Under the pieces are notes generated by a model, which saw only the letters and a program-made list of their open reading frames with translations, was not told the origin of the DNA and ran no database searches. A DNA stretch of 32,642 nt from Corallococcus sp. RDP092CA (GTDB lineage Bacteria; Myxococcota; Myxococcia; Myxococcales; Myxococcaceae), in assembly GCF_041903675.1 (NCBI RefSeq), contig NZ_JAYESI010000001.1:1-32642 (forward strand), written 5' to 3'. Below, piece after piece: positions 14,888 to 32,194 of the stretch (position 1 is the first letter of the stretch; each line of letters begins with the position of its first letter). A program made the translations under genes and the position numbers.

Positions 14888-15049
14888 GCCGCTCGCGTCC
14901 GGCTGGACAGGAAGACGGGCCTCGGGGTGAATGTTCGTGGCGGCGGAGCGCTCCAAGGGGGCTGACCCCGCCTTGTCCCGCTCCCCCGGGTGCGCTAAGT
15001 CGTTCGCAAGCTCCCGGGACTGTTGAGGATTCCTTGGAGGAACGCCGCC

Positions 15050-15736
15050 ATGCCCCGCACGTCCGCCCGCATCGCCATCACTGTCGCGGCCTCGCTCGTC
15101 CCCATGCTGGCCTTGGCCGGCTCGGTCTTCCTGAACGGTGTGAAGATCGACGGGGTGACGAACACGCGCTTCGAGAAGGCCACCGTCCGCATCGACGCGG
15201 AAGGGAACGTCCACATCGACGCGCCGGGGTACGCCGCCCGCGTGACGACCGTGACGCCCACGCCCGCGACGCCTTCCACCGCGACGCCTCCGGCCGCCGC
15301 CGCGGCTCCGGACGCGGGCATCGTCGCGCAGGCTCCGGCTCCGACCGCTCCCGCCGCTCCCACGTCCGGGCCGGCGCGCATCACGCAGCGCTACTGGCTG
15401 GTGACGGAGCAGACGACGCCGGGCATGACGGACTTCGACATCGACGTGTACGTGAACTCGCGCTGGCTGCGTCGTCTGCGCAACAACGAGGACCAGGTGG
15501 TGATGGACATCACCAGCCAGTTGCGTCCCGGCGCGAACGCGGTGACGCTGATTGCCCGCAAGGTGAACGGGGGCAGCCGCCGCAGCACGTCGCCCGGGAA
15601 CGTCTTCAAGGTGATCATCGGCGAGGGCAACGAGGGCGGCGGCAACGTGATGGTTGACACGCCCCTCATCCGCTTCCAGAAGACGGCTGCGGACGCGCAG
15701 GACGCGACCGAGGAGTTCACCCTCACCACCCGCTGA
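15050..15736 (+). CDS. Secreted hypothetical protein (signal peptide, Pro/Thr/Ala-rich linker, C-terminal beta-rich domain)
   Basis: ATG 15050 follows GGAGGA at 15036-15041. The signal peptide reads MPRTSARIAITVAASLVPMLALAGS. The ORF-track start 15023 is an upstream extension. Third-codon-position GC bias supports the frame. Confidence 0.6.
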   Translation: MPRTSARIAITVAASLVPMLALAGSVFLNGVKIDGVTNTRFEKATVRIDAEGNVHIDAPGYAARVTTVTPTPATPSTATPPAAAAAPDAGIVAQAPAPTAPAAPTSGPARITQRYWLVTEQTTPGMTDFDIDVYVNSRWLRRLRNNEDQVVMDITSQLRPGANAVTLIARKVNGGSRRSTSPGNVFKVIIGEGNEGGGNVMVDTPLIRFQKTAADAQDATEEFTLTTR

Positions 15737-15760
15737 GGGTGCGCGGGAAGGGAGACGACG

Positions 15761-16225
15761 GTGTTCACCATCGACGAGCGCTACCGGGGTCTTCCCGCCA
15801 ACCGCGACCAGGTGCTCTCGCTGCACCTGTCGCTCAACACGCCGCACGTGGCCATCCCCGGCAAGCAGGCGGGGCCCGCGCAGGCCTTCGTGGTGGGGCT
15901 GCGCGGTGGACAGAGCGCGGGCGTCTTCGTGTACCTGTACCTGGTGGAGGCGGGGGACTGCGCGGTGTACGTGTCCGGCCGGCGCATCCAGTCCGCGGAT
16001 GAGCTGCGCGAGGATGAGGACGACGCGCTCGCGTTCGTGGAGTCGCTGGGCTTCATGATGGACAACGCGAACTGGCGTGCCGCGGCGCCCGCGCAGCAGG
16101 ACGAGTGGCTGAAGACGCTGCCCGTGTTCTTCCGGGAGCCCACGCTCGTGCCCGCCGTGAAGGCCCGCGCTGAAGAGAAGCGCAACGTCGCCACCACCCT
16201 GGGCCGCTTCCTGGCCGCGTTCTGA
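15761..16225 (+). CDS. Conserved hypothetical protein
   Basis: GTG 15761 is preceded by GGGAAGGGAG. 154 aa, about 24 nt downstream of the previous gene (likely co-transcribed). Codon bias supports the frame, which runs antisense to a spurious 1016-aa minus-strand ORF. Confidence 0.5.
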   Translation: MFTIDERYRGLPANRDQVLSLHLSLNTPHVAIPGKQAGPAQAFVVGLRGGQSAGVFVYLYLVEAGDCAVYVSGRRIQSADELREDEDDALAFVESLGFMMDNANWRAAAPAQQDEWLKTLPVFFREPTLVPAVKARAEEKRNVATTLGRFLAAF

Positions 16226-17423: not shown

Positions 17424-18158
17424 ATGGAGCGGTACGCCGACGACGCGTTCGTGCTGTCCACGGTGGACTATGGTGAGTCCGACCGGCTGGTGACGCTGCT
17501 CACGCGTGAGCACGGCAAGCAGACCGCGTTCGCCGCGGGCGCGCGCAAGAGCAAGCGCCGTTTCGCGGGGGCGCTGGAGCCGTTCATGCGGCTGCGCGTG
17601 CAGCTCGTGGAGACGCGCGGCAGCACGGTGCGGCTGGACTCCGCGGACATCGTCGCGGGCTTCTATGCCGCGCGCGAGGACCTGTCGCTCATCGCCCGGG
17701 CGCTGTACTCCGTGGAGCTGTGCCGCGAGCTCACGCGCGACCATGAGCCGCACCCGGAGCTGTTCGAGCTGGTGGAGGGCTACCTTCACCGGCTGGACGC
17801 GAAGGAGGCCGGGCCCACGTCGCTGCTGGCGTTCGAGCTGGCGGCGCTGGCGCAGGCGGGGTTGATGCCGCGCTTCGACTCCTGCTCGCTGTGCGGCGGT
17901 CTGCCCGGCGAGCGGCCCCGGTTCGACCAGGGCCACGGCGGCGCGGTGTGTGAGCCGTGCGGTGGACGCGCGCGCGACTCGGTGCCCGTGCCGGTGGCGC
18001 TGCTGGCGGGGCTGCGTTCGCTCCAGGAGGGTCAGCGCACGCCGCTGCCCGCGGACCTCCGCGCGCGGGCGCGGGGGCTGCTCAACGTCTTCATCGCGCA
18101 CCACGTGGGCCGCAAGCTCAAGAGCGTGGACTTCATGGCGCAGGTGGGCCTGGACTGA
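17424..18158 (+). CDS. recO: DNA repair protein RecO
   Basis: The N-terminal OB fold reads MERYADDAFVLSTVDYGESDRLVTLLTREHGKQTAFAAGARKSKRRFAGALEPF. The C-terminal zinc motif is CSLCGG...CEPCGG. 244 aa. Confidence 0.88.
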   Translation: MERYADDAFVLSTVDYGESDRLVTLLTREHGKQTAFAAGARKSKRRFAGALEPFMRLRVQLVETRGSTVRLDSADIVAGFYAAREDLSLIARALYSVELCRELTRDHEPHPELFELVEGYLHRLDAKEAGPTSLLAFELAALAQAGLMPRFDSCSLCGGLPGERPRFDQGHGGAVCEPCGGRARDSVPVPVALLAGLRSLQEGQRTPLPADLRARARGLLNVFIAHHVGRKLKSVDFMAQVGLD

Positions 18159-18188: not shown

Positions 18189-19202
18189 ATGCACGAAGCC
18201 GGGCCGCTGGACGTGGTGTGTGTCGGCGAGACGCTGGTGGACTTCCTCCCCGTGGCTGGCGGCGCCACGCGCGTTCGGGACGTGGAGGCGTGGAAGCCGT
18301 CTCCGGGGGGCTCTCCGGCCAATGTCTCCGTGGGGCTCGCGCGGCTGGGGCTGCGCTCGGCGATGGTGGGCGTGGTGGGCTCCGACGAGTTCGGCCACTT
18401 CCTGCGCGACCGGCTGGCGGCGGAGGGCGTGGACGTGAGCCGCTTGCGTCAGGTGGACCACGCGCGCACCGGCCTGCTGTTCGTCTCGCTGGATGCGCAC
18501 GGTGAGCGCAGCTTCACGTACTTCCGGACGCGCTCGGCGGAGTTCCTGCTGGACGACTCCGACGTGGATGGCGACTTCGTGCGGCGTGCGAAGGTGCTGC
18601 ACTGCGGCTCCAACTCCCTGCTCCTGCCAGAGGCGCGCGAGGCCATGGTGCGCCTGCTCACCCTGGCACGCGAGGCCGGGATGCTGGTGAGCTGTGATCC
18701 GAACCTGCGGCTGCATATGTGGACGCGGCCCGAGGAGCTTCAAGCCCTCCTGGGCCGCATGCTCCCGCTGTGCACGGTGGTGAAGCTGTCCGAGGAGGAG
18801 ATCCACTTCGCGACCGGCGAGCACTCGCCGGAAGCGGCCCTGCAGGTCCTGGCCGCCCAGGGCGTGCGGCTGCCCGTGGTGACGCTGGGGCCGCGCGGGG
18901 CGGTGTTCCTCTGGCGGGGCGAGGTCCTCTCCGTTCCCGCGCCCCAGGTGACGGTGGTGGACACGACGGGCGCCGGTGACGGCTTCGTGTCCGCGATGTT
19001 GAGCGGGCTGGTGCGCGGCCATGGCGGCGCGCGTGCACTGGAGGGCGCGACGCGCGAGGACCTGGTCGCGCTGATGACCTTCGCCGCGGGGGTGGGGGCC
19101 CGGGTGGTGACGAAGCTGGGCGCGGTGGCGGCGCTCCCGCTGGCGTCCGAAGTGGAGGGGCTGTTGCCCGAAGGACCCGCCGCGCGTCGCATCGCGCGCT
19201 GA
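18189..19202 (+). CDS. PfkB-family carbohydrate/nucleoside kinase (ribokinase superfamily)
   Basis: The N-terminal GG motif region reads VVCVGETLVDFLP...PGGSPANVSVGLARLG. The C-terminal anion-hole/ATP motif is DTTGAGDGFVSAMLSGL. 337 aa, with SD GGGGGAAGGG upstream. Confidence 0.85.
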   Translation: MHEAGPLDVVCVGETLVDFLPVAGGATRVRDVEAWKPSPGGSPANVSVGLARLGLRSAMVGVVGSDEFGHFLRDRLAAEGVDVSRLRQVDHARTGLLFVSLDAHGERSFTYFRTRSAEFLLDDSDVDGDFVRRAKVLHCGSNSLLLPEAREAMVRLLTLAREAGMLVSCDPNLRLHMWTRPEELQALLGRMLPLCTVVKLSEEEIHFATGEHSPEAALQVLAAQGVRLPVVTLGPRGAVFLWRGEVLSVPAPQVTVVDTTGAGDGFVSAMLSGLVRGHGGARALEGATREDLVALMTFAAGVGARVVTKLGAVAALPLASEVEGLLPEGPAARRIAR

Positions 19203-19280
19203 CGGGGAGCACCGGCCAGGGTCAGGCTCGCATGCTTCGCCGCGTCCTGCGTGGCCCGCCATCCCATCCAGGAGGGACCG

Positions 19281-20567
19281 ATGAGCGACACGCGTGAGAG
19301 CGCTTCTTCCACCCCGGCGCGGGTCCGTGGGCTGGAGCAGATCGACCGGCTGTCCGTGCCGCTGCCGCATGGTACCGAGGTCACGACGCGCGTGGAGCGC
19401 GTGGCGTCCGGCCGCCGCATTCCCCAGGGCGTGGTGGGCCGCGTGGTGCGCGCGCATGATGGCGGCTTCGACGTCCAGATCGTCGGGGTGGGCGAGGTGT
19501 GGTTCGCGCGCGACGAGCTCGTGCCCCGGCGGATGGGGCAGGTGCAGTTCGCCCAGCGGCGCGAGGCGGCCTGGAGCGCGCTGCGGCCGTGCGTGGTGCT
19601 GGAGACGCGCGTGGGCAGTCACGCCTGGGGGCTCGCGGACGAGCGCTCCGATGTGGACGTGCGCGGCGTGTTCGCGCTGCCGCTGCCGTGGACGCTGGGC
19701 CTGGGGCAGCCCCCGCAGGACCTGGTGAGCGCGGATGGCAGCACCACGTACTGGGAGGTCCGCAAGGCGGTGGAGCAGGCGCTGCGCGCGGATCCGAACA
19801 CGCTGGAGACCCTCTTCGTCCCCGGCGTGAAGCCGCTGGACGAGCTGGGCGCGTGGGTGCTGGAGGTGCGCGAGGCGTTCGTCTCCAAGGCCATCTTCGG
19901 CAGCTTCGGACGCTATGCCATGAGCCAGCTCGACAAGCTCACCCGCAGCCAGCGGCTGGCCGAGCACCGCGACCTGCTGCTCGCGTGGCTGTGCGAGGAG
20001 CCCACGCCGGACCTGGACGAGGTGGCCCGGCGCCTGGCCGCCGTGTCGCCCCGCGCCGCGCCCACGCCCGAGGACGCGGTGCTCGCGGCGAAGACGTACG
20101 TCAAGCAACTCTACCGCTCGCTCTGGGACCAGGGACTGCTCGCGTCGAATGACCTCGCCGCGCTCACGGCATACGCGCGCGGCGGGGGCCAGCGTCCCCC
20201 GTCCGCGCGGGAGCTGCGACCGAAGAACGCCTACAACCTGCTGCGGCTGGTGGCGCTGGCGACGGGCTGGCTGCGCGACGGCGTGCCCACCTTCGAGGCG
20301 ACGGGGGCGCTGAAGGCCCGGCTGCTCGACATCAAGCGTGGACAGGTGCCACTGAAGGACGTGCTGCGCGACGCCGAGGCGATGGCGCCAGCGCTGGAGG
20401 CCGCGCACCGGGAGAGCCGGCTGCCGGAACATCCGGACCATGCCCGCGCGGATCGGCTGCTGCGACGCGTGGGAGGGGAGGTGGCGCGGCGCTGGGTCTT
20501 GCAGACGCCCGGACCGCTGGGCCGTGACGCGCCGGAGGCTCCGGCGCTGGAAGGAGGGATGGAATGA
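19281..20567 (+). CDS. RlaP/COG3541-type predicted nucleotidyltransferase (Pol-beta superfamily) with extra N-terminal small beta-barrel-like domain
   Basis: ATG 19281 lies 5 nt after the strong SD AGGAGGGA. The ORF-track start 19251 is a 10-codon upstream extension. The Pol-beta NTase signature is LETRVGSHAWGLADERSDVDVRGVF (G-S...D-x-D). A C-terminal helical region (RPKNAYNLLRLVALATGWLRDGVPTFEA) is typical of PF10127-like proteins. 428 aa. Confidence 0.7.
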   Translation: MSDTRESASSTPARVRGLEQIDRLSVPLPHGTEVTTRVERVASGRRIPQGVVGRVVRAHDGGFDVQIVGVGEVWFARDELVPRRMGQVQFAQRREAAWSALRPCVVLETRVGSHAWGLADERSDVDVRGVFALPLPWTLGLGQPPQDLVSADGSTTYWEVRKAVEQALRADPNTLETLFVPGVKPLDELGAWVLEVREAFVSKAIFGSFGRYAMSQLDKLTRSQRLAEHRDLLLAWLCEEPTPDLDEVARRLAAVSPRAAPTPEDAVLAAKTYVKQLYRSLWDQGLLASNDLAALTAYARGGGQRPPSARELRPKNAYNLLRLVALATGWLRDGVPTFEATGALKARLLDIKRGQVPLKDVLRDAEAMAPALEAAHRESRLPEHPDHARADRLLRRVGGEVARRWVLQTPGPLGRDAPEAPALEGGME

Positions 20568-21352
20568 AGGGCAGGCTGACGGAACATCAGGAGCGGATGG
20601 CGGACCGCGTGCTGGACGCCGAGTCCCTCGCGCGCGAACACCTGGTCATCTCGCTGTCCGGCGCGCATGCGTACGGGTTCCCGTCGCACGACAGCGACCT
20701 GGACCTCAAGGCCATCCACATGGCGCCCACCGCCGCGCTCCTCGGCCTCCAGCCGCGGCACGTGCCGGCGGAGCGGATGGAGGTGCTGGAGGGCGTGGAG
20801 GTGGACTACTCGTCCAACGAGTTGCAGCCCGTACTGCTGGGCATCCTCCAGGGCAACGGCAACTACATCGAGCGGGTGCTGGGGGCCATCACCGTGCGGG
20901 CCCTGCCGGAGCTGGAGACGCTGCGGCCCCGGGTGCGGGCCGTGCTGTCGCGGCGCATCCACCGGCACTACCGCGGCTTCGCGCAGGGACAGCTGCGTGA
21001 ATGGGAGAAGGGTGGCTTCCGCTCCGTGAAGAAGCTGCTGTACGTGCTGCGCACCACGCTCACCGGGGCGCATGCGCTGCGCACGGGCGAAGTGGAGACG
21101 GATGTCACCGTCCTGCTGGAGCCGTATGGCTTTGGCGGGGCCCACGCGCTGGTGGAGCGCAAGCAGTGTGGCGAGCGCATCGAGCTGGACGACGCGCTTA
21201 GCGAGCAGTGGCAGGGCGAGGTGACGCGCGCGTTCGCGGTGCTCGATGCGGCGGACGCGGCCTCCGTGTTGCCCCTGGAGCCACAACCGTCGGCCGTGGC
21301 CGCGCTCGAGGGCTGGATGCTCGACGTGCGGCGCCAGCGGTTCGGCGCCTAA
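20564..21352 (+). CDS. RlaP/COG3541-type predicted nucleotidyltransferase (second, paralogous copy)
   Basis: The ATG overlaps the upstream TGA as ATGA (translational coupling). The signature is ISLSGAHAYGFPSHDSDLDLKAIH, and the conserved helical motif VKKLLYVLRTTLTGAHALRTGEVETDV is present. 262 aa. Confidence 0.7.
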   Translation: MKGRLTEHQERMADRVLDAESLAREHLVISLSGAHAYGFPSHDSDLDLKAIHMAPTAALLGLQPRHVPAERMEVLEGVEVDYSSNELQPVLLGILQGNGNYIERVLGAITVRALPELETLRPRVRAVLSRRIHRHYRGFAQGQLREWEKGGFRSVKKLLYVLRTTLTGAHALRTGEVETDVTVLLEPYGFGGAHALVERKQCGERIELDDALSEQWQGEVTRAFAVLDAADAASVLPLEPQPSAVAALEGWMLDVRRQRFGA

Positions 21353-21422: not shown

Positions 21423-23723
21423 ATGGCGGGTAACATCCGCCCCGCCATGAGCACGCAGGGAGGCGCCGGAGAAGATCCCGACCGGGGGCGGCGCATCGGA
21501 AAGTACGAGATCCTCACCCGACTCTCCATGGGAGGGATGGCGGAGCTGTTCCTCGCGTACACCTCCGGCCCCGGTGGCTTCCGCAAGTTCGTGGCGGTGA
21601 AGCAGATCCTCCCCGACATCAAGAAGGACGACCAGTTCGTCAAGATGTTCCTCGACGAGGCGCGCATCACCGCGGCCTTCTCGCACGCGAACATCGGGCA
21701 GGTGTTCGACCTGGGCGAGGAGGACGGCGAGCTGTACCTCGCCATGGAGTTCCTGCCCGGCCAGAACCTGGAGCAGGTGGTGAAGATGGCGGCGCGGCGC
21801 AACTACACGCTGCCGCTGGGCTTCAGCGCGCGCGTGATGCGCGACACGTGCCTGGGCCTGCACTACGCCCACCACTTCATGGATCCGTCGGGCCGCCCCG
21901 TGGCGGTGGTGCACCGCGACGTGTCCCCGAAGAACGTGATGATCACCTACGACGGCGTCGTGAAGGTGATCGACTTCGGCATTGCCAAGGCGCGCGGCAA
22001 GCTGGGGCGCACGCAGGTGGGCACCGTGAAGGGGACCAGCGGGTACATGTCCCCGGAGCAGGTGCGCAACAAGGACCTGGATGGCCGCAGCGACCAGTTC
22101 TCCACGGGCGTGATGTTCCACGAGCTGCTGGCCGGCCAGCGCCTGTTCAACGCTCCGGGCGAGGCCGCCGTGATGATGCAGATCGTGGACGGGGAGATCC
22201 CCGCGCCGCGCTCGCTCAACCCGGCCGTGTCGGAGGCCCTGGACGCGGTGGTGCTCAAGTCGCTGTCGCGCGACTCGGCCCAGCGCTTCGGCACGTGCCG
22301 GGAGATGGCGCGCGCCATCGAGGCCTCGCTGGGCGCCGAGCTGTTCGACGAAGATCAGATGGCCGCCATCATGGGCGAGCTCTTCGAGGAGAAGCGCCAG
22401 AAGACACGCACGCTCCTGGAGCTGGCCAGCCGCGCGGAGGACGCCCGCGTCAGCGAGGCCGCTGGCGCGCTCCACGTGGAGGAGGGCGGTGAGCAGGCTT
22501 CCGCAGAGCCCACCGCGCAGGTGAAGTCGCCGCCCGCGGACGTCGCGCCGTCCTTCAAGCCGACCCCCGTCCGCCGCACTGCGACCGAGTCCACGACGCC
22601 CGCCCCGCGCGCCACTCCGCGCCCCGCCATGGAGGCCGCCGAGGCCCGCGCCTCGCGCGTCAATACGCCCACCGTGGCGCCGCGATCGCAGCGTCCCTCG
22701 GGCGCTGATTCGGCATCGGTTCCGCGGGTGGTCCGCCCTCCCGCTGACGCCGTGCGGCCCTCTCGGGCTCGCCCCAGTGCGCGGCCCGAACCCTCCGAAG
22801 CGCGTGGTGCGTCCCAGTCCGAAGGGCTGATGGATCCGCCCAGCGAGCTCCAGACCCAGCGCTTCAAGACCCGCCCCGCGCGGAGCTCCACCCGGACCCC
22901 GCGTCACGCGGAGGAGGCGGAGGTCGCCGAATCAGCGGCTCCGGCCCCGCCCGCCCGTGAAGGCTCCGGCTGGGGCATGCGGCTGTTCCTGCTCCTCCTC
23001 CTGGGCGGCGTGGCCTACCTGGCGACGCTGGAGCCCGTGCGCCGCGTGTTCATGCCGGCGTACGAGTCCGCGAAGCAGTGGGTGCAGGCGGAGCTGGATC
23101 CACCTCCGCCCGTGGACCCCGCCGCGAACGGGCAGTGGCCGCCCAAGCCCTCTGGTCCGCCTCCGGGCTTCGCCCAGAAGCCCGCCCCCGAGCCCGAGAA
23201 GGCGCCGGAGGTGGAGCCGTCGCCTCCGCCCGAACCCGAGGTGGAGCCGGTCGTCGCCGACGCGAAGAAGACGCCCGCGGGCAAGGGGGCGCGCAAGGCG
23301 AAGCCGGCCGCTCCCAGCGTTCAGCCCGCCTCGGTGGACAAGCCCGCAGTGGACAGCCCGGTGGTGGCGAAGGCGGACCCGCGCCCCGCGAAGCCCGCGG
23401 CCCCTGAGCCGGTCACCACCGTCACGCAGGAGGAGAACCCGGAGGTGCTCGACACGACCACCTCGAAGGGCGCCGCGAAGGCGGGCCTGGGCTGGCTCAC
23501 GCTCTACACGGTGCCGAAGAACGCGGCCGTGTTCGACGGCGCCACGCAGCTGGGCACGTCCCCCCTGATCAAGTTCCCGCTCCCCGTGGGCACCTACCGC
23601 CTGCGCGTGGTGGACCCGCAGGACCCCGGCGGAACGAGCAAGCTGTTGTCCGCTCCCGTCCGTCCCGGCGAGGTGACGAAGCTGCAGATTCGACTGGCCG
23701 ACCTCCCGGCCTACGCGGACTGA
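21423..23723 (+). CDS. Membrane Ser/Thr protein kinase (Hanks-type) with Pro-rich linker, TM helix and periplasmic PEGA-like domain
   Basis: Kinase subdomains are present: I-II (IGKYEILTRLSMGGMAELFLA...FVAVKQI), VIb (VVHRDVSPKNVMI), VII (DFGIAK) and VIII (GTSGYMSPEQ). A long low-complexity Pro/Ala/Glu region follows, then a TM helix (MRLFLLLLLGGVAYLATL), more Pro-rich sequence and a C-terminal PEGA-like beta domain (GTYRLRVVDPQD...VTKLQIRL). ATG 21423 is chosen over the ORF-track start 21246. ATG 21447 is an alternative. Confidence 0.78.
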   Translation: MAGNIRPAMSTQGGAGEDPDRGRRIGKYEILTRLSMGGMAELFLAYTSGPGGFRKFVAVKQILPDIKKDDQFVKMFLDEARITAAFSHANIGQVFDLGEEDGELYLAMEFLPGQNLEQVVKMAARRNYTLPLGFSARVMRDTCLGLHYAHHFMDPSGRPVAVVHRDVSPKNVMITYDGVVKVIDFGIAKARGKLGRTQVGTVKGTSGYMSPEQVRNKDLDGRSDQFSTGVMFHELLAGQRLFNAPGEAAVMMQIVDGEIPAPRSLNPAVSEALDAVVLKSLSRDSAQRFGTCREMARAIEASLGAELFDEDQMAAIMGELFEEKRQKTRTLLELASRAEDARVSEAAGALHVEEGGEQASAEPTAQVKSPPADVAPSFKPTPVRRTATESTTPAPRATPRPAMEAAEARASRVNTPTVAPRSQRPSGADSASVPRVVRPPADAVRPSRARPSARPEPSEARGASQSEGLMDPPSELQTQRFKTRPARSSTRTPRHAEEAEVAESAAPAPPAREGSGWGMRLFLLLLLGGVAYLATLEPVRRVFMPAYESAKQWVQAELDPPPPVDPAANGQWPPKPSGPPPGFAQKPAPEPEKAPEVEPSPPPEPEVEPVVADAKKTPAGKGARKAKPAAPSVQPASVDKPAVDSPVVAKADPRPAKPAAPEPVTTVTQEENPEVLDTTTSKGAAKAGLGWLTLYTVPKNAAVFDGATQLGTSPLIKFPLPVGTYRLRVVDPQDPGGTSKLLSAPVRPGEVTKLQIRLADLPAYAD

Positions 23724-26896: not shown

Positions 26897-28244
26897 GCGT
26901 GAGAAAAAATTAACGATACTGATGCGTCCGCAGGACGCATAAGCATCTCTGTGCGAGCATGACTCGCCATGGCGGGAAGCAGACGGCCGCGAGTGCGTGT
27001 GCTGCGGCCGAGACGGGCTCAGGTGCTGACGGCTCGGACCTATGAGCAGTTGGTTGACCGAGGTCATCCGGTCCGAGCCGTATGGGCGGCTGTCGAAGCG
27101 CTAGACATGTCGGACTTCGAGCGCGCCATCCGCGCTCGTCCCCATCACGCGGGCCGTTCGGCGGTGGACCCGAAGCTGTTGCTGGCGCTGTGGGTGTATG
27201 GGCAGATGGAGGGGCTCTCCAGCGCTCATGCCATTGCTGCCAGGCTGCGCACGGACGTTGCGTATTGGTGGTTGTGCGGCGGCGTCGGAGTGTCGGCACA
27301 TACGCTGTCCTCCTTCATGACGCGCTCAGGCCCTGCCTTCCGGGCGTTGCTGGGCAAGCTGCTGGATGACCTGTGCAGCCGCGGTGCCGTACGCCGGCCA
27401 CGGCGACTTGCACAGGACGGCACGCGTGTGCGGGCCTCCGCAGGGGCCGCCTCTTTTCACCGCAAGGCCACCCTGCAGAAACGGGCCACTGAGGCTGCTG
27501 CCGCCGGCCAGTGCCGGCGGGGCGCCAGCCCCCAGGCACGTGCGGCGCGCAAACGCGCTCGGGCCGATTTACAGGCTCGGGCGGCACTCGCGCTTGCTGC
27601 TTTGCCGGCAGCGGCACGGCGTAAGAAACGTGCGAAGGGGGGCGCTCGTGGCGAACCCCGAGCCTCTCTCACCGACCCACAGGCACACGTGATGCGCATG
27701 CCAGACGGCGGCTACCGCCCCGCCTACAACGCGCAGGCCGTCTCGGACGTGGAGAGCCGGCTCGCATTGGCCGGTCGTGTCACCAATGAGGGGGCGGACA
27801 CGGCCCAGTTGCTACCGATGGTGCACTGTGTGGCCCACGTCCTGGGACTCAAGCCCGAAGCTTGGTTGGTAGACGGGGCCTATCGGAATCTCAAGGCCTT
27901 CTCCGCGCTCGAATCGCAGGGCATTCGTGTCTTCTCTCCTCTACCGGCGCGCAAGAACCTGCTTCCACCGGGGGAGCAGCGCAGGCGCCGACGAGGCGAA
28001 CCCATCGAGGCGTGGCGTGCGCGGATGCAGACACTCGCAGGCAAGCGCACATACGCCCAGCGCGCACCGACGGCGGAACTGCTCAATGCGCAGGTCAAGG
28101 AGCGCCAAGGCCTGCGCAGGCTTCACGTACGAGGTCGCAAGCGAGCCGAAGCTGCATGGCTGCTCGCACTCGTCGCCCACAACCTTCTGCTCGCCATCGC
28201 GCAAGGGTGGCTCGGCGAGCCGGAAGGCTCATTTTTTCTCACGC
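26897..28244 (+). mobile_element. Complete insertion sequence, IS1182-family-like (IS5/IS4 superfamily), about 1348 bp, with 14-bp perfect terminal inverted repeats
   Basis: IRL GCGTGAGAAAAAAT (26897-26910) and IRR ATTTTTTCTCACGC (28231-28244) are perfect reverse complements. Including the flanks gives a 23-bp IR with one mismatch (26888-26910 vs 28231-28253). The element holds a single DDE transposase ORF with a DUF772-like N-terminus and is abruptly AT-rich at its ends against about 70% GC context. The 7-bp direct repeat CCTGAGG flanks it (26890-26896 and 28245-28251). Its size fits the IS1182 family range. Confidence 0.78.
26922..26940 (+). other. Perfect 8-bp hairpin just inside IRL, upstream of the transposase start
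   Basis: ATGCGTCC-GCA-GGACGCAT. IS elements commonly carry such structures to block translation from read-through transcripts or to bind transposase. Confidence 0.4.
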
Positions 28245-28249
28245 CCTGA
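26969..28249 (+). CDS. IS1182-family DDE transposase (DUF772 N-terminal domain plus DDE_Tnp_1-like catalytic domain)
   Basis: 426 aa. The N-terminal region has the DUF772/InsH-like motif DPKLLLALWVYGQMEGLSSAHAIAARLRTDVAYWWLCGG...HTLSSFMTR. The catalytic region reads HVMRMPDGGYRPAYNAQAVSD...LVDGAYRNLKAFSALESQGIRVFSPLP. The C-terminus reads RLHVRGRKRAEAAWLLALVAHNLLLAIAQ. The ORF ends with the TGA inside the right-hand CCTGAGG. Confidence 0.8.
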   Translation: MAGSRRPRVRVLRPRRAQVLTARTYEQLVDRGHPVRAVWAAVEALDMSDFERAIRARPHHAGRSAVDPKLLLALWVYGQMEGLSSAHAIAARLRTDVAYWWLCGGVGVSAHTLSSFMTRSGPAFRALLGKLLDDLCSRGAVRRPRRLAQDGTRVRASAGAASFHRKATLQKRATEAAAAGQCRRGASPQARAARKRARADLQARAALALAALPAAARRKKRAKGGARGEPRASLTDPQAHVMRMPDGGYRPAYNAQAVSDVESRLALAGRVTNEGADTAQLLPMVHCVAHVLGLKPEAWLVDGAYRNLKAFSALESQGIRVFSPLPARKNLLPPGEQRRRRRGEPIEAWRARMQTLAGKRTYAQRAPTAELLNAQVKERQGLRRLHVRGRKRAEAAWLLALVAHNLLLAIAQGWLGEPEGSFFLTP

Positions 28250-28251
28250 GG
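28245..28251. repeat. Putative target-site duplication, right copy (CCTGAGG), containing the transposase TGA stop
   Basis: Identical to 26890-26896. Because CCTGAGG is a near-palindrome (CCTNAGG), the alternative reading is a 23-bp imperfect IR with no TSD. Confidence 0.5.
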
Positions 28252-28415
28252 CCCCACCGCCGCTTCACCGCCGGAGCGTGCCCGTTTCCCCACCAAGGGA
28301 GCGGCGCACGCCTTCCGGGCGGGGGCGGATGTCCGCGGGCGGGCGTCCGGGAATAGCGGCAGCCCTATTCAGTTGCCCGGGGCAGGGCCGCGTTCCTACA
28401 CTCCGCCCCCCTCTG

Positions 28416-29945
28416 ATGCGCCTCCACTTCCTGACCCCCGCGCTGCTGCTCCTCGGGGCGTGTTCGATCGAGTCCGAACCGAACCCGCCTCCGTCCACCC
28501 GCTTCGTGTACCCCAGCGGGGTGGCGTTCTGGCGCCCTCCGTCGGCGGGAGGCCCCTCGGCGAGCAACGGCTACCTCTTCGTCGCGAACGCCAACTTCGA
28601 CAACTGCTACGACTCCGGTTCAGTGGTGGCGCTGAACCTGGACACGCTGAGCACGCAGCAGGACGGGCAGGCCGTCGCCTTGCCCCACCTGGGCGGCGCG
28701 CTCCCGGAGTCCTCGCTCGCCTTCGAGGACCTGGCGTCCTCGGACGAAGCGCTCGTGCAGATCCGCAGCTTCGCGGGCGAGCTGGGCCTGTGGGTGAACC
28801 CGGCCACCGGGCTGCCGCGCCTGTTCGTGCCCTCGCGCGCGGAGGGCAACAACCTGCACGCCGTGGACGTGGGCCTGACGGCCAGCGGCGCGCCGACGCT
28901 CACCTGCGTGCAGGGCGGCGTGGACTGCCGCAACGGCGCGCTGTCGCTCACGGACGACATCCCGTCATCCCTCAGCGAGGAGGGCCGCTCGGGCCTGCCG
29001 CGCGCGCCGTCGCCCATTGGCGTGACGGTGGATGACGCGAGCGGCACCCTGTACGTGACGCACTCGGAGGCGGCGGACTCGCCCGCGAAGTCCAGCACCA
29101 ACTTCGAGAACTACCTGGCCACGGTGAAGCTGGACAACCCCACGCGGGACACGCTGGGCTTCATCCCGCTGTCGCCCGAGGGCTACGCCTACGGCGGCTC
29201 GGACTCGGTGACGGTGGGCGCGGGCTACCTCTACGTGACGGGCCGCAACTTCGTGGCCGGCGTCAGCGGCACGGTGGCCGCCAACTTCGTGCTGCGGCTG
29301 GTGGACAAGAACCAGCCCGGCACGCTCCTGGAGCCCTCGTTGCAGTCGGTGTACCGCATCCGCGAGGCGCGCGCGGTGCGCGTGGTGCCCCGGCCGGTGA
29401 CGGCGGCGGAGCTGGCGGCGGATCCGAACTTCGTGCGCGAGCGGCTCTACCTGCTGGCGCGCGGCCCGGACACGCTGCTCACCATCGACTTCGAGTACGA
29501 CGCGGTGCCGGGCGGCGCCGCCAGCCAGCCCTACTTCCGGGTGGTCTCCGCGGTGCCCATGCCCGACGGCGTGAGCGACATGCAGCTCATCTCTCGCACG
29601 CCGGGCACGTCCAACGCGGACACCAACATCATCGCGGTGACGAGCACGGGCGACAGCGCGGTGTCCTTCTACGACGAGGCGCTCGGGCAGGTCGTGGCGC
29701 AGGTGCCGCTCGTCAACGACCTGAACCAGGGCAGCAACCCGTCGCAGGCCTTCGGGCTGACGGTGGACAACCCCGCCGGGACGAACGCGGCGCGGCTGTT
29801 CGTGACCAACTTCGGTGACAGCCAGGTATCCATCGTGGACATCCCCGACCTGGCGCGTCCCCAGGACGCGCGGCTGGTGGCGAAGCTGGGCATCCAGCAG
29901 CAGCGCGATCCGAACCAGGGCACCAGCGTGTGCCAGGAGAACTGA
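28416..29945 (+). CDS. Lipoprotein with YVTN-type beta-propeller-like repeats
   Basis: ATG 28416 gives MRLHFLTPALLLLGAC with lipobox LLGAC. The ORF-track start 27927 is an in-frame extension running back into the IS. Repeated motifs of the 40-residue YVTN beta-propeller type occur (YLFVANANFDN, LYVTHSEAADS, LYVTGRNF, LFVTNFGDSQVSIVDIP). 509 aa. Confidence 0.72.
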   Translation: MRLHFLTPALLLLGACSIESEPNPPPSTRFVYPSGVAFWRPPSAGGPSASNGYLFVANANFDNCYDSGSVVALNLDTLSTQQDGQAVALPHLGGALPESSLAFEDLASSDEALVQIRSFAGELGLWVNPATGLPRLFVPSRAEGNNLHAVDVGLTASGAPTLTCVQGGVDCRNGALSLTDDIPSSLSEEGRSGLPRAPSPIGVTVDDASGTLYVTHSEAADSPAKSSTNFENYLATVKLDNPTRDTLGFIPLSPEGYAYGGSDSVTVGAGYLYVTGRNFVAGVSGTVAANFVLRLVDKNQPGTLLEPSLQSVYRIREARAVRVVPRPVTAAELAADPNFVRERLYLLARGPDTLLTIDFEYDAVPGGAASQPYFRVVSAVPMPDGVSDMQLISRTPGTSNADTNIIAVTSTGDSAVSFYDEALGQVVAQVPLVNDLNQGSNPSQAFGLTVDNPAGTNAARLFVTNFGDSQVSIVDIPDLARPQDARLVAKLGIQQQRDPNQGTSVCQEN

Positions 29946-29947
29946 CC

Positions 29948-32194
29948 TTGAAGCGCGGCTTTCTTGCTGCCCTGTTGCTGAGCGGCGCGGGCCTCGCGCT
30001 CGCCTGCTCCGACACCACCTCCACCGCGGGTATCGCCGGTCTGTCCGGCACGTACGACGTGGTGCTCTCCAACGATCTCGTCTTCGTCACCTCGCAGGAC
30101 CGGGATGAGCTGCGCGTGCTGGACCTGGGGCGGTCGCCGCGTGACTTCATCCCCGCGCCCAACCCGCTGGAGCCCCTGGCCATCCCCGTCATCGCGCGGC
30201 CGGATTCGCTCACCCGCGACGTGAGCTACAGCGAAGTGAACAAGGAGGCGTCGGGCCCGTACGTCTACGCGCGCAGCTCCGGCGGCCGCGGCATCTCCGT
30301 GGTGGCCGCGGACCGCGAGCGCCTCAACGAGGTGACGCGCCTGGCGACCGGCGAGCTCATCACCGCCTTCGCCGCGCACGCCCCCGTGGCGGCCGGCGCG
30401 CCCAGTGTCCTGTACTACGCGCTCCAGACGCGCCCGCAGGCCGCCGAGCAGCTGTGCGGCCCCTTCGGCGGCGGGGTGGTGATGCGCCAGGACCTGCCCG
30501 GACCGGACGGCTTCGACGCGGCCGCGCTGCCGCCCGCGCTGCCGGTCTTCTGCCTCAAGCCGGCGGACACGGTGATGTCCCTGCTCTCGCTGCCCCCCCA
30601 GGCCGACAAGCCGGACTCGCTGGTGGTCGCCATCCGCAACGTGTCCGGCACCAGCCGGCTGGTGCGCGTGGTGGCGGACGGGACCAACGTGGAGATCCCC
30701 TACAAGCGGCCGCGTCCGGCGCCGTTCACGGTGCCCACGTACACGGACCTGGTGGACATCCCGGCGCGGCTCGTGGCCACGCACCCCAGCTACGAGGTGC
30801 AGCGGGCCAAGGTGAATGATGCATGCCCGGAGGGCACCACGACGAGGGCCATTGATGAGAACGACCCTCCGACGACGATCTGCATCGAGACCTGGCCCGC
30901 GGGCCGCTTCGTGTACGCGGTGCTGGATGAGCTGACCTGCAACTCGTCGGACTGCGAGGGCGTCATCGCGCTCGACAACGGGCCGGATCCGGTGAATGCG
31001 CCGTCCGCGGCGCCGGTGCTCGCCCGCGACATCACCGGCGCGCCCATGCTGACGCTGCGGCCGACCGCGGGCCTGCCCACGGGCCTCACGCTGGTGCCGG
31101 GCCAGGAGGTCCGCGAGCTGCTGTCGGACAGCGTGGCCTACCGCAGCGCCATCCCGCTCCTGGGCATCATGCCGTCGTCCAGCGGGGAGATCACCCTGTT
31201 CCGCGCCGACGAGCGCCGCGCGTTCAACCTGGACCGGCATCCGACCGATGGACCGCTGAACGCGTCGGTGACCTCGGACCTGCGCGACGGCAACGAGGTC
31301 TCGTACACGGAGCAGTCCCAGGGCGTCCTGGTGAACGAACCGGGCTGTCCCCAGGCGACCGACGCGACCAACGCCACCGCGTTCCTCTGCAACGGGACGG
31401 TGCCCAGCGGGACGTACCGTCTGGTCTACCAGGGGCTGCTGCCCGGGCTCGTCGGCCTCACGCGCGATGTGCGCGAGGAGGACCCGCCGCTCCTCATCGA
31501 AACGTCGCTGGCGACGGCGCGCGGGGTGATGCCGGGGGACTCCATCGTGCTGGCCAACAACGCGGGCCCCTGCGCGGCGAGCATCCCCATCCTCCGCCTG
31601 GAGGACCAGGGCAACGGCCTGACGCGCCTCTACCCGGACCTGTCCGACCCGGCCGTCGCGGACGCCGTGGCGCCGTGCTCGTCATATCCGGCGTTCGACG
31701 TGCGCGCGGGCCCGAACGCGAAGCCCTTCGTGCTCTACTCGGGCCTGGAGACCAGCGACACGTACGTGAAGCGGCTGGACGTGAACGAGGCGTACACGGT
31801 CTCCAGCTTCCTGGACTACTACTACCACCCGGACGACTTCGACCTGGGCCTGGAGCCGCCCAAGACGCCCCCCACCCGGTACGTCCCCGCGCCGCTGACG
31901 CTCACCCTCACGCCGACCGTCTGCGCCCCCACCACGCCGTGCCGGCTGGTGCCGGGGGACCGCTTCGTGGTGACGCTGCAGCCGCGCTTCCGCCGGTTCG
32001 TCTTCGGGGTGGACACCAGCTCGACGAGCAACCTGGCGGTCTACACCCTGCCTTCTTCCGTGGTGGCCACGGCCGTGGACGGCGCCAGCCTGGCCTTCAT
32101 CGCCTACCCCTCGGCGGACGGCATCCTCCAGGTGGCGCTGGAGTCGATCAGCGATAACGTGGACAACCTCACGTATCTCCGGGCGTTCCAGTAA
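29948..32194 (+). CDS. Large lipoprotein (about 749 aa), probable beta-propeller/beta-rich surface protein
   Basis: A TTG at 29948, 3 nt after the upstream TGA, would give M-KRGFLAALLLSGAGLALAC, a textbook lipoprotein signal with lipobox LALAC. GGAG lies about 10 nt upstream. The alternative is the GTG at 29930 (ORF-track start), overlapping the upstream gene by 16 nt. YVTN-like segments are present (LVFVTSQDRDELRVLDLG, YVYARSSGGRGISVV). TAA at 32192-32194. Confidence 0.68.
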   Translation: MKRGFLAALLLSGAGLALACSDTTSTAGIAGLSGTYDVVLSNDLVFVTSQDRDELRVLDLGRSPRDFIPAPNPLEPLAIPVIARPDSLTRDVSYSEVNKEASGPYVYARSSGGRGISVVAADRERLNEVTRLATGELITAFAAHAPVAAGAPSVLYYALQTRPQAAEQLCGPFGGGVVMRQDLPGPDGFDAAALPPALPVFCLKPADTVMSLLSLPPQADKPDSLVVAIRNVSGTSRLVRVVADGTNVEIPYKRPRPAPFTVPTYTDLVDIPARLVATHPSYEVQRAKVNDACPEGTTTRAIDENDPPTTICIETWPAGRFVYAVLDELTCNSSDCEGVIALDNGPDPVNAPSAAPVLARDITGAPMLTLRPTAGLPTGLTLVPGQEVRELLSDSVAYRSAIPLLGIMPSSSGEITLFRADERRAFNLDRHPTDGPLNASVTSDLRDGNEVSYTEQSQGVLVNEPGCPQATDATNATAFLCNGTVPSGTYRLVYQGLLPGLVGLTRDVREEDPPLLIETSLATARGVMPGDSIVLANNAGPCAASIPILRLEDQGNGLTRLYPDLSDPAVADAVAPCSSYPAFDVRAGPNAKPFVLYSGLETSDTYVKRLDVNEAYTVSSFLDYYYHPDDFDLGLEPPKTPPTRYVPAPLTLTLTPTVCAPTTPCRLVPGDRFVVTLQPRFRRFVFGVDTSSTSNLAVYTLPSSVVATAVDGASLAFIAYPSADGILQVALESISDNVDNLTYLRAFQ

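Follow-up and report, generated by a model that had tools for sequence, protein, structure and literature searches.

The RlaP family of nucleotidyltransferases (NTases), reportedly named by Burroughs and Aravind in 2016 (cited through PMC7824862), counts over 10,000 proteins. Biochemistry was first reported for it in a preprint of December 2025 (PMC12776372), which treats two single-subunit enzymes, PfRlaP and PaRlaP, encoded in RtcB operons. Both add one or two nucleoside monophosphates (NMPs) to the 3'-OH of RNA and prefer nicked-tRNA mimics and Mn2+; they are inactive on DNA or protein, and can restore the aminoacylation of tRNA that is missing a nucleotide. According to the same source, an association with RNA-repair genes has been described for only some members of the family.

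Here we analyse an adjacent pair of RlaP genes, NTase1 and NTase2, in a chromosomal stretch of 32,642 nucleotides from Corallococcus sp. RDP092CA (contig NZ_JAYESI010000001.1, positions 1 to 32,642, forward strand; hereafter the window). A preliminary description, made from the sequence alone, had joined the two genes in a module with an upstream PfkB-family kinase and recO. We take the unit to be the NTase pair alone and read it, with a probability of roughly 0.6, as a two-subunit RlaP-class enzyme: a heteromeric RNA 3'-end nucleotidyltransferase detached from its ligase.

The NTase pair, its catalytic residues and its fusions

The features that make up the pair are these:

19270-19275, + strand: Shine-Dalgarno-like AGGAGG, 5 nucleotides 5' of the NTase1 ATG (sequence reading)
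19281-20567, + strand: NTase1, A-type (long) RlaP subunit, 428 residues, ATG start, match to PF10127
19377-19526, + strand: N-terminal small beta-barrel of NTase1 (residues 33-82), a putative RNA-binding KOW/SH3-like domain
20552-20567, + strand: translational-coupling junction, with AGGAGG at 20552-20557, within the end of NTase1, followed by ATGA at 20564-20567
20564-21352, + strand: NTase2, B-type (short) RlaP subunit, 262 residues, match to PF10127, NTase core and helical domain

Both proteins score far above the curated gathering cut-off of the RlaP profile PF10127 (23 bits): NTase1 reaches 71.7 bits (E 1e-19) and NTase2 82.5 bits (E 5e-23), in agreement with the family assigned to them in the preliminary description. 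PF10127 is the sole Pfam match for either protein and NCBIfam returned none for NTase1 or NTase2; membership of an aminoglycoside NTase family, a placement that had been set for checking, or of a lincosamide NTase family (ANT(4')/KNTase, AadA and LinB were considered) was found in neither collection. The match to NTase2 spans profile positions 24-248 of 249. That to NTase1 spans only positions 20-144, because a lineage-specific insertion of about 90 residues (approximately residues 221-310) interrupts its helical domain; the N-terminal barrel lies outside the coverage of the profile.

The motifs quoted previously, RVGSHAWGLADERSDVDVRGV and LSGAHAYGFPSHDSDLDLKAI, are present in the translations, and the Pol-beta signature (hG[GS], [DE]x[DE] and a third acidic residue) occurs in both. 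Alignments of 36 homologues per protein show that G112, S113, D124, D126 and D152 of NTase1 are invariant, as are G33-A34, D45, D47 and D81 of NTase2; the third aspartates, D152 and D81, align with one another. The two proteins are about 28% identical over 141 residues. Judged by these residues both look catalytically competent, and the view that they are no obvious pair of active and inactive enzymes has been borne out.

AlphaFold models (predicted local distance difference test, pLDDT, 82.6 for NTase1 and 86.3 for NTase2) place in NTase1 the barrel at residues 33-82, a minimal NTase core at about 105-160 and a helical domain at about 160-406, part of which resembles HEPN/KNTase_C-like bundles on structure comparison; NTase2 has a helical domain after its NTase core. 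The C-terminal helical module claimed for both proteins is thus seen in both models, while Pfam covers that of NTase1 incompletely owing to the insertion. Searched on their own against Pfam at E-values up to 1, the barrel and the insertion of NTase1 matched no meaningful family. The nearest solved folds returned by Foldseek for the NTase2 model are weak (template modelling, TM, scores of 0.3-0.5) and comprise 3c18, HalB, ANT(4')/KNTase and AadA; no solved structure close in sequence was found when both NTases and an NTase2 profile were compared with PDB chains. The PfRlaP crystal structure, in which an N-terminal NTase domain and a C-terminal helical domain make up a cleft, was not among the solved structures searched.

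Orthologues of NTase1 are often named 'UDP-phosphate N-acetylglucosaminyl 1-phosphate transferase' or 'undecaprenyl-phosphate...' in NCBI and UniRef (P0004, P0009, P0011 and others). This looks like propagated misannotation, as the sequence is that of an RlaP NTase and appears to hold no membrane-transferase domain.

The junction between the genes, GAAGGAGGGATGGAATGA, has the ATGA overlap reported earlier: the ATG of NTase2 (20564-20566) overlaps the TGA of NTase1 (20565-20567), and the second AGGAGG lies 6 nucleotides 5' of the NTase2 ATG. Homologues of NTase1 begin at the same MSD... residues as NTase1 itself. To place the pair in a wider frame, a scan of one genome per species recovered 80 loci with NTase1 relatives, all in Myxococcota and spanning Myxococcaceae, Archangiaceae and Anaeromyxobacteraceae, metagenome-assembled genomes (MAGs) included. 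Adjacency was counted over the 75 loci with enough downstream sequence. In 64 of these NTase2 lies less than 200 nucleotides 3' of NTase1 on the same strand, and 51 of the 64 show the 4-nucleotide overlap.

The structure of the pair is kept while its flanks are wholly different between genera. In Stigmatella the flanking genes are of NUDIX, YfbR-like HD and GNAT type, in Myxococcus there is a hybrid histidine kinase and in Melittangium a MoxR/BatA operon; none of these settings resembles that in Corallococcus. All-against-all clustering of six-frame open reading frames (ORFs) from the 80 loci found only the two NTases to be common across clades, although this clustering is noisy because high G+C content gives many spurious overlapping ORFs. 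Between Corallococcus and Myxococcus NTase1 is 83-88% identical, compared with 69-73% for PfkB, which suggests that NTase1 is a strongly constrained, vertically inherited gene; across Myxococcia its identity is 62-95%. A locus on BNCN01000014.1 (L024), labelled Comamonas sp. KCTC 72670, has NTase1 and NTase2 genes 85% and 74% identical to those of the window and cannot be told apart from the loci of Myxococcus; mislabelling or contamination of the assembly is the probable cause.

Searched exhaustively and without a profile, 1.84 billion representatives yielded 2681 relatives of NTase1, many of them 600-725 residues long with two matched stretches. All 22 of the long relatives that were checked consist of an NTase1-like N-terminal half and an NTase2-like C-terminal half, always in that order. 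The tally is of cluster representatives at 50% identity and is a lower bound, that is, at least 22 independent fusions. In the six that were read for motif (P0375, P0384, P0388, P0391, P0392 and P0364) both halves carry an SDxD-type motif; the motif was not individually inspected in the remaining 16. Nothing remarkable surrounds a fusion found on a contig of a Polyangia MAG, nor another on a contig whose taxon is unknown. The translational coupling proposed in the preliminary description is upheld by the 51 overlapping pairs and by the overlaps in Deinococcus (below), and that the two form a functional pair is shown by their conserved adjacency, by the fusions and by the orthologous Deinococcus pair. 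Together, fusion, translational coupling and co-inheritance are strong evidence that NTase1 and NTase2 act as one unit.

A further relative, P0417 (569 residues), is an A-type RlaP with barrel, NTase and helical domain, in which a C-terminal putative HAD-type hydrolase replaces the B-type NTase (ILFDLDDTLY motif, recognised by eye).

RNA-repair context and the reading of the pair

A search of plasmids with NTase1 led to three Deinococcus megaplasmids: D. gobiensis P2, D. ficus pDFI2 and D. taeanensis p_TS293_5. In each, Hen1 is followed by an A-type and then a B-type NTase gene with 4-nucleotide overlaps; Pnkp follows the pair in D. gobiensis and D. ficus, and is not adjacent in D. taeanensis. 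The A-type proteins (304-318 residues) have the same N-terminal barrel as NTase1, the B-type proteins are of 259-264 residues, and the two match the whole RlaP profile at 144 and 172 bits. In a blastp matrix NTase1 scores 85-92 bits against the Deinococcus A-type proteins and 29-33 against the B-type, while NTase2 scores 96-113 bits against the B-type and 42-44 against the A-type. The alignment of NTase1 to the A-type proteins falls into two blocks that skip residues 221-310 or thereabouts. Because the A/B orthology is reciprocal, the duplication and the gene order must predate the Myxococcota versions. On the D. taeanensis plasmid (L095:2429-3684) the Hen1-NTaseA-NTaseB genes are closely preceded by the gene of a small AAA ATPase and by one that resembles tRNA(His) guanylyltransferase, of the Thg1 family.

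Single RlaP genes occur in several settings. In Gordonia phage DatBoi one adjoins an RNA ligase, and on a Clostridium botulinum plasmid another overlaps the gene of a CCA-adding enzyme, with RtcB near. Other single RlaPs stand alone, in phage-like or housekeeping settings.

Within Myxococcota the links are sparse. In a Myxococcota MAG (L080:15599-17895) RtcB and then an ORF with an RtcA domain (RNA 3'-phosphate cyclase) lie 4.3 kilobases (kb) 3' of NTase1 on the same strand; NTase2 of this locus gave a match of 95 residues only and may be degraded. In an Archangiaceae MAG (L079:3234-6816) the end of a 584-residue HEAT-repeat ORF overlaps NTase1 by 4 nucleotides, and 5' of it a 217-residue ORF holds only the Hen1_L (Pnkp-associating) region of Hen1, possibly what remains of a Pnkp/Hen1 operon. 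A third link concerns a protein of Myxococcus and Pyxidicoccus with MJ1316, an RNA cyclic-phosphate end-recognition domain, among its parts:

L004:11103-14201, - strand: 1032-residue protein with MJ1316, EEP nuclease/phosphatase, 2H phosphoesterase (2',5' RNA ligase-like) and poly(A)-polymerase NTase and central domains (also L027-L032, L048 and L070)

Seven loci have its gene on the strand opposite to the pair, at a distance of 2-6 kb, and in six loci of the M. xanthus group nothing but its first 78 or so residues (MJ1316) is left. These residual associations are limited to clades and individually weak, and all are in the same direction. Taken with the Deinococcus Hen1-Pnkp operons, the few Myxococcota loci with RtcB/RtcA or a Hen1 fragment place the pair in the RNA-repair lineage of RlaP. 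The preliminary description had left open a pathway acting on a small molecule, an RNA end or a protein; of these the RNA end has gained ground, and a new small-molecule pathway has not.

What such a pair might do can be sketched from the homology with single-subunit RlaPs and from the gene context of the orthologous pair. Translational coupling would set a fixed proportion of NTase1 to NTase2, and the probable product is a heteromer whose two active sites are both intact but not equivalent. The enzyme would move one or a few NMPs from nucleoside triphosphates to the 3'-OH of RNA that has been damaged or cut short, tRNA for example, with the end of the RNA held by the KOW/SH3-like barrel and by a cleft of positive charge that separates the NTase domain from the helical one. 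The two sites could act in succession or serve different ends, and repair might be completed by a ligase encoded elsewhere, or without any ligase. A bolder version, which we regard as doubtful, takes the pair of Myxococcia, and with it the fusions of Polyangia and other uncultured bacteria, to be a ligase-independent, two-site RNA 3'-end tailing or repair enzyme turned to a vertically inherited housekeeping role; by analogy with the split CC- and A-adding enzymes, site A and site B would attach nucleotides one after the other, perhaps of different kinds, to a particular RNA (for example the 3' end of a tRNA or rRNA) chosen by the barrel.

Several observations weigh against a heteromeric RNA 3'-end enzyme. 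To our knowledge RlaP has been assayed only in single-subunit form, in enzymes from RtcB operons (PMC12776372). Searches by tblastn found Hen1, Pnkp, RtcB, phage RNA ligase, CCA enzyme and Thg1 to be absent from the window and from 78 of the 80 Myxococcota loci (for the Pnkp/Hen1 system, the D. gobiensis Hen1 and Pnkp queries gave no match in the window). The RNA-repair role suggested here is thus drawn from homology at 30-34% identity and from context in other lineages. In Corallococcus the pair may be co-transcribed with PfkB, given a gap of 78 nucleotides with no terminator. Finally, a Hyalangium-like clade of eight loci (L050-L056 and L059) has NTase1 but no NTase2 within 10 kb, so that in some lineages the A subunit may need no partner.

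One member of that clade, H. versicolor (L056:10001-11266), has an in-frame stop in NTase1 at the otherwise invariant Trp158 (STY*EY), which suggests either decay of the gene after loss of its partner or a sequencing error; a deoD-like purine nucleoside phosphorylase gene lies 3' of NTase1 on the opposite strand.

The alternative that survives best is that one subunit is catalytic and the other, despite its motif, a structural or RNA-recognition partner, or else that each acts independently on a substrate of its own and the two are merely co-expressed. The modest identity of the two proteins and their differing accessory domains are consistent with this, as are the Hyalangium-like loci and the lone A-type RlaPs of phages and chromosomes. 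Yet neither protein varies at the glycine or at the three aspartates among its 36 homologues, and SDxD-type motifs recur in both halves of the six fusions read and in the Deinococcus B-type proteins; that the complete set of catalytic residues has been kept over so deep a phylogeny speaks for two working sites. We therefore judge a single working subunit, or two unconnected ones, unlikely.

Weak similarity of fold is the one point in favour of two further possibilities. The pair could be a small-molecule NTase of ANT(4')/KNTase, AadA or Lnu type, modifying an antibiotic or metabolite as a dimer with shared active sites, but the structural scores are low (TM 0.3-0.5, identity 9-16%), RlaP is the only Pfam match, orthologous pairs are embedded in Hen1/Pnkp operons, a KOW/SH3-like barrel suits the binding of nucleic acid, and the vertical conservation of NTase1 across Myxococcia is atypical of resistance genes. 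This we consider improbable. More improbable still is a synthase of signal nucleotides or oligonucleotides in anti-phage defence, like Hailong HalB or a CD-NTase: PADLOC gave no match to a defence system, the cyclic-oligonucleotide-based anti-phage signalling system (CBASS) that was to be excluded among them, none of the 80 loci has a conserved effector (a HalA-like channel or Cap effector) next to the pair, and the pair has housekeeping flanks and an inheritance that looks vertical rather than island-like.

The PfkB kinase and the housekeeping array

The window is of 63-74% G+C and all its credible genes lie on the + strand. In order they are:

from the window start, + strand: tRNA-Trp, secE, L11, L1, L10, L7/L12, then rpoB and rpoC
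after rpoC, + strand: two phasin-like genes, an SLT transglycosylase, two small uncharacterised genes, a TPR lipoprotein and an HTH_25 protein
after the HTH_25 gene, + strand: recO, PfkB kinase, NTase1, NTase2, Ser/Thr protein kinase (STPK), glyQ, glyS and two large ORFs
17424-18158, + strand: recO (TIGR00613 144.3 bits, plus RecO_N and RecO_C), context only, outside the unit
18189-19202, + strand: PfkB-family sugar kinase, fructokinase-like (PF00294 217.8 bits, E 2.7e-64), context only, outside the unit
~21423-23723, + strand: STPK, directly 3' of NTase2

Rfam and tRNA scans of the window gave a single match, tRNA-Trp at 467-542. Two pairs of ORFs on the + strand lack a Pfam match. The first, at 14999-15736 and 15737-16225 (about 245 and 162 residues), lies between the SLT and TPR lipoprotein genes, and its position is kept in Corallococcus, Myxococcus and Melittangium (L007-L009). 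The second, at 27873-29945 and 29819-32194 (about 690 and 790 residues, with high G+C content at third codon positions), lies 3' of glyS, as do equivalent unannotated ORFs in Melittangium (L009).

The layout on which the preliminary description built its module is accurate. All four genes are on the + strand with spacings of no more than 80 nucleotides (30 between recO and PfkB, 78 between PfkB and NTase1 and the 4-nucleotide overlap), the kinase has the PF00294 match expected of it, and a promoter and terminator scan found no terminator-like hairpin between recO, PfkB, NTase1 and NTase2, nor other signals separating the genes. It is on conservation that the module fails. Searched by tblastn with the window genes, recO, PfkB, STPK and glyQ occur within 10 kb of NTase1 in 11 of the 80 loci, all of the Corallococcus clade and with NTase1 identity of at least 91%, and in none of the other 69. 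Close homologues of STPK (at least 92% identity) are likewise found in Corallococcus loci only.

The array also exists without the NTases. In Myxococcus stipitatus the rpoC...TPR-HTH_25-recO-PfkB genes are followed by unrelated genes, in Melittangium boletus recO-PfkB-glyQ-glyS runs on with no NTase between, and in both the pair is elsewhere; PfkB orthologues (65-73% identity) adjoin recO in such genomes. The best NCBIfam models for PfkB, both under their equivalog cut-offs, are fructokinase NF006957 (217.9 bits against 450) and iolC (205.4 against 300), and on these scores it looks like a fructokinase- or iolC-type sugar kinase. Invariance of the kinase-NTase-NTase order among relatives had been set beforehand as a check, and the outcome is the refuting one: a fructokinase-like orthologue with no conserved linkage. 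The Corallococcus array appears to differ by an insertion of NTase1-NTase2-STPK between PfkB and glyQ. Since the linkage to PfkB and recO is confined to Corallococcus and arrays of recO-PfkB(-glyQS) occur without NTases, we take the pair to have been inserted; in the history that we envisage, pair and STPK gene would have landed together between PfkB and glyQ in an rpoBC...recO-PfkB-glyQS housekeeping array.

A single pathway of PfkB, NTase1 and NTase2, in which a sugar, nucleoside or RNA end receives a phosphate from the kinase and is then activated or nucleotidylated by the NTases (or in which PfkB is the 'missing' RNA 3'-kinase that makes RlaP products compatible with RtcB, an activity needed for RtcB and undiscovered according to the RlaP preprint, PMC12776372), is scarcely credible: it has in its favour the shared strand, the short gaps free of terminators and a gene order kept across the 11 Corallococcus-clade loci, an order that descent explains within one genus, and against it the lack of PfkB within 10 kb in the 69 other loci, the orthologues that stay beside recO where the pair is elsewhere, the absence of a PfkB gene from every fusion, Deinococcus, phage or plasmid context, and the best scores of PfkB against fructokinase and iolC models. 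In our reading PfkB has no functional tie to the NTase pair, and the setting of the pair in Corallococcus is a lineage-specific accident.

Significance and comparison with known systems

Both genes are members of RlaP, and the ordered A/B pair occurs in recognised RNA-repair operons; this is not a new kind of system. The preliminary description was right that the window has no ligase, and its impression of a new context did not last, the same ordered pair being present within the Deinococcus Hen1-Pnkp operons. What is not described in the literature that we searched is the two-subunit, fusable behaviour, the integrity of both sites and the upkeep of the pair in Myxococcia with no linked ligase. 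A widespread sub-lineage of RlaP consists of two diverged subunits, co-translated or fused, with both active sites intact; the A/B pair is ancient, being common to Deinococcus Pnkp/Hen1 operons and Myxococcota, and in Myxococcia it persists under strong constraint. It gives experimenters a defined object on which to ask why two NTase sites are needed for the repair of RNA ends, and the analysis removes the PfkB kinase as a misleading lead and flags the misannotation of the long subunit. Were the ligase-independent two-site enzyme real, it would give the RlaP class its first heteromeric member and a role beyond the repair of toxin-antitoxin-style RNA damage.

The nearest solved folds are ANT(4') kanamycin nucleotidyltransferase, related antibiotic NTases and HalB, oligomeric enzymes that share an NTase core and a helical (HEPN/KNTase_C-like) domain. 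Identity is 9-16% and TM is at most 0.5, their substrates and genomic settings are other ones, and there is no sequence match at the level of family.

In Aquifex, Deinococcus and cyanobacteria the CCA end of tRNA is made by separate CC-adding and A-adding class II NTases. As two related Pol-beta NTases that add consecutive nucleotides to an RNA 3' end, they are a functional analogy for the keeping of two sites. They differ from the Corallococcus pair in belonging to another NTase family (class II, with head, neck, body and tail domains) and in being separate enzymes, for which no obligatory pairing by translational coupling or fusion is known. A defined nucleotide specificity is not indicated by the evidence on the Corallococcus pair.

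With PfRlaP and PaRlaP, of the RtcB-RlaP-RtcA operon (PMC12776372), the pair shares the family threshold, the catalytic signature and, according to the models, a Pol-beta NTase core with a helical domain. RlaP relatives found in our searches adjoin RNA ligases, Pnkp, Hen1, RtcB and CCA-adding enzymes. Whereas PfRlaP and PaRlaP are single polypeptides in ligase operons, Corallococcus has two diverged, coupled paralogues with no ligase within 10 kb, and NTase1 goes beyond the characterised RlaPs in its N-terminal KOW/SH3-like barrel and its insertion.

The Deinococcus Hen1/A/B/Pnkp operons have the same order of A then B, the overlaps, the A-type barrel and reciprocal orthology. Their A-type proteins (about 304-318 residues) are without the insertion that NTase1, at 428 residues, contains. 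The company differs too: the Deinococcus pair is flanked by the healing, sealing and methylating machinery of Pnkp and Hen1, whereas the pair in the window is flanked by PfkB and a Ser/Thr kinase, within a housekeeping array.

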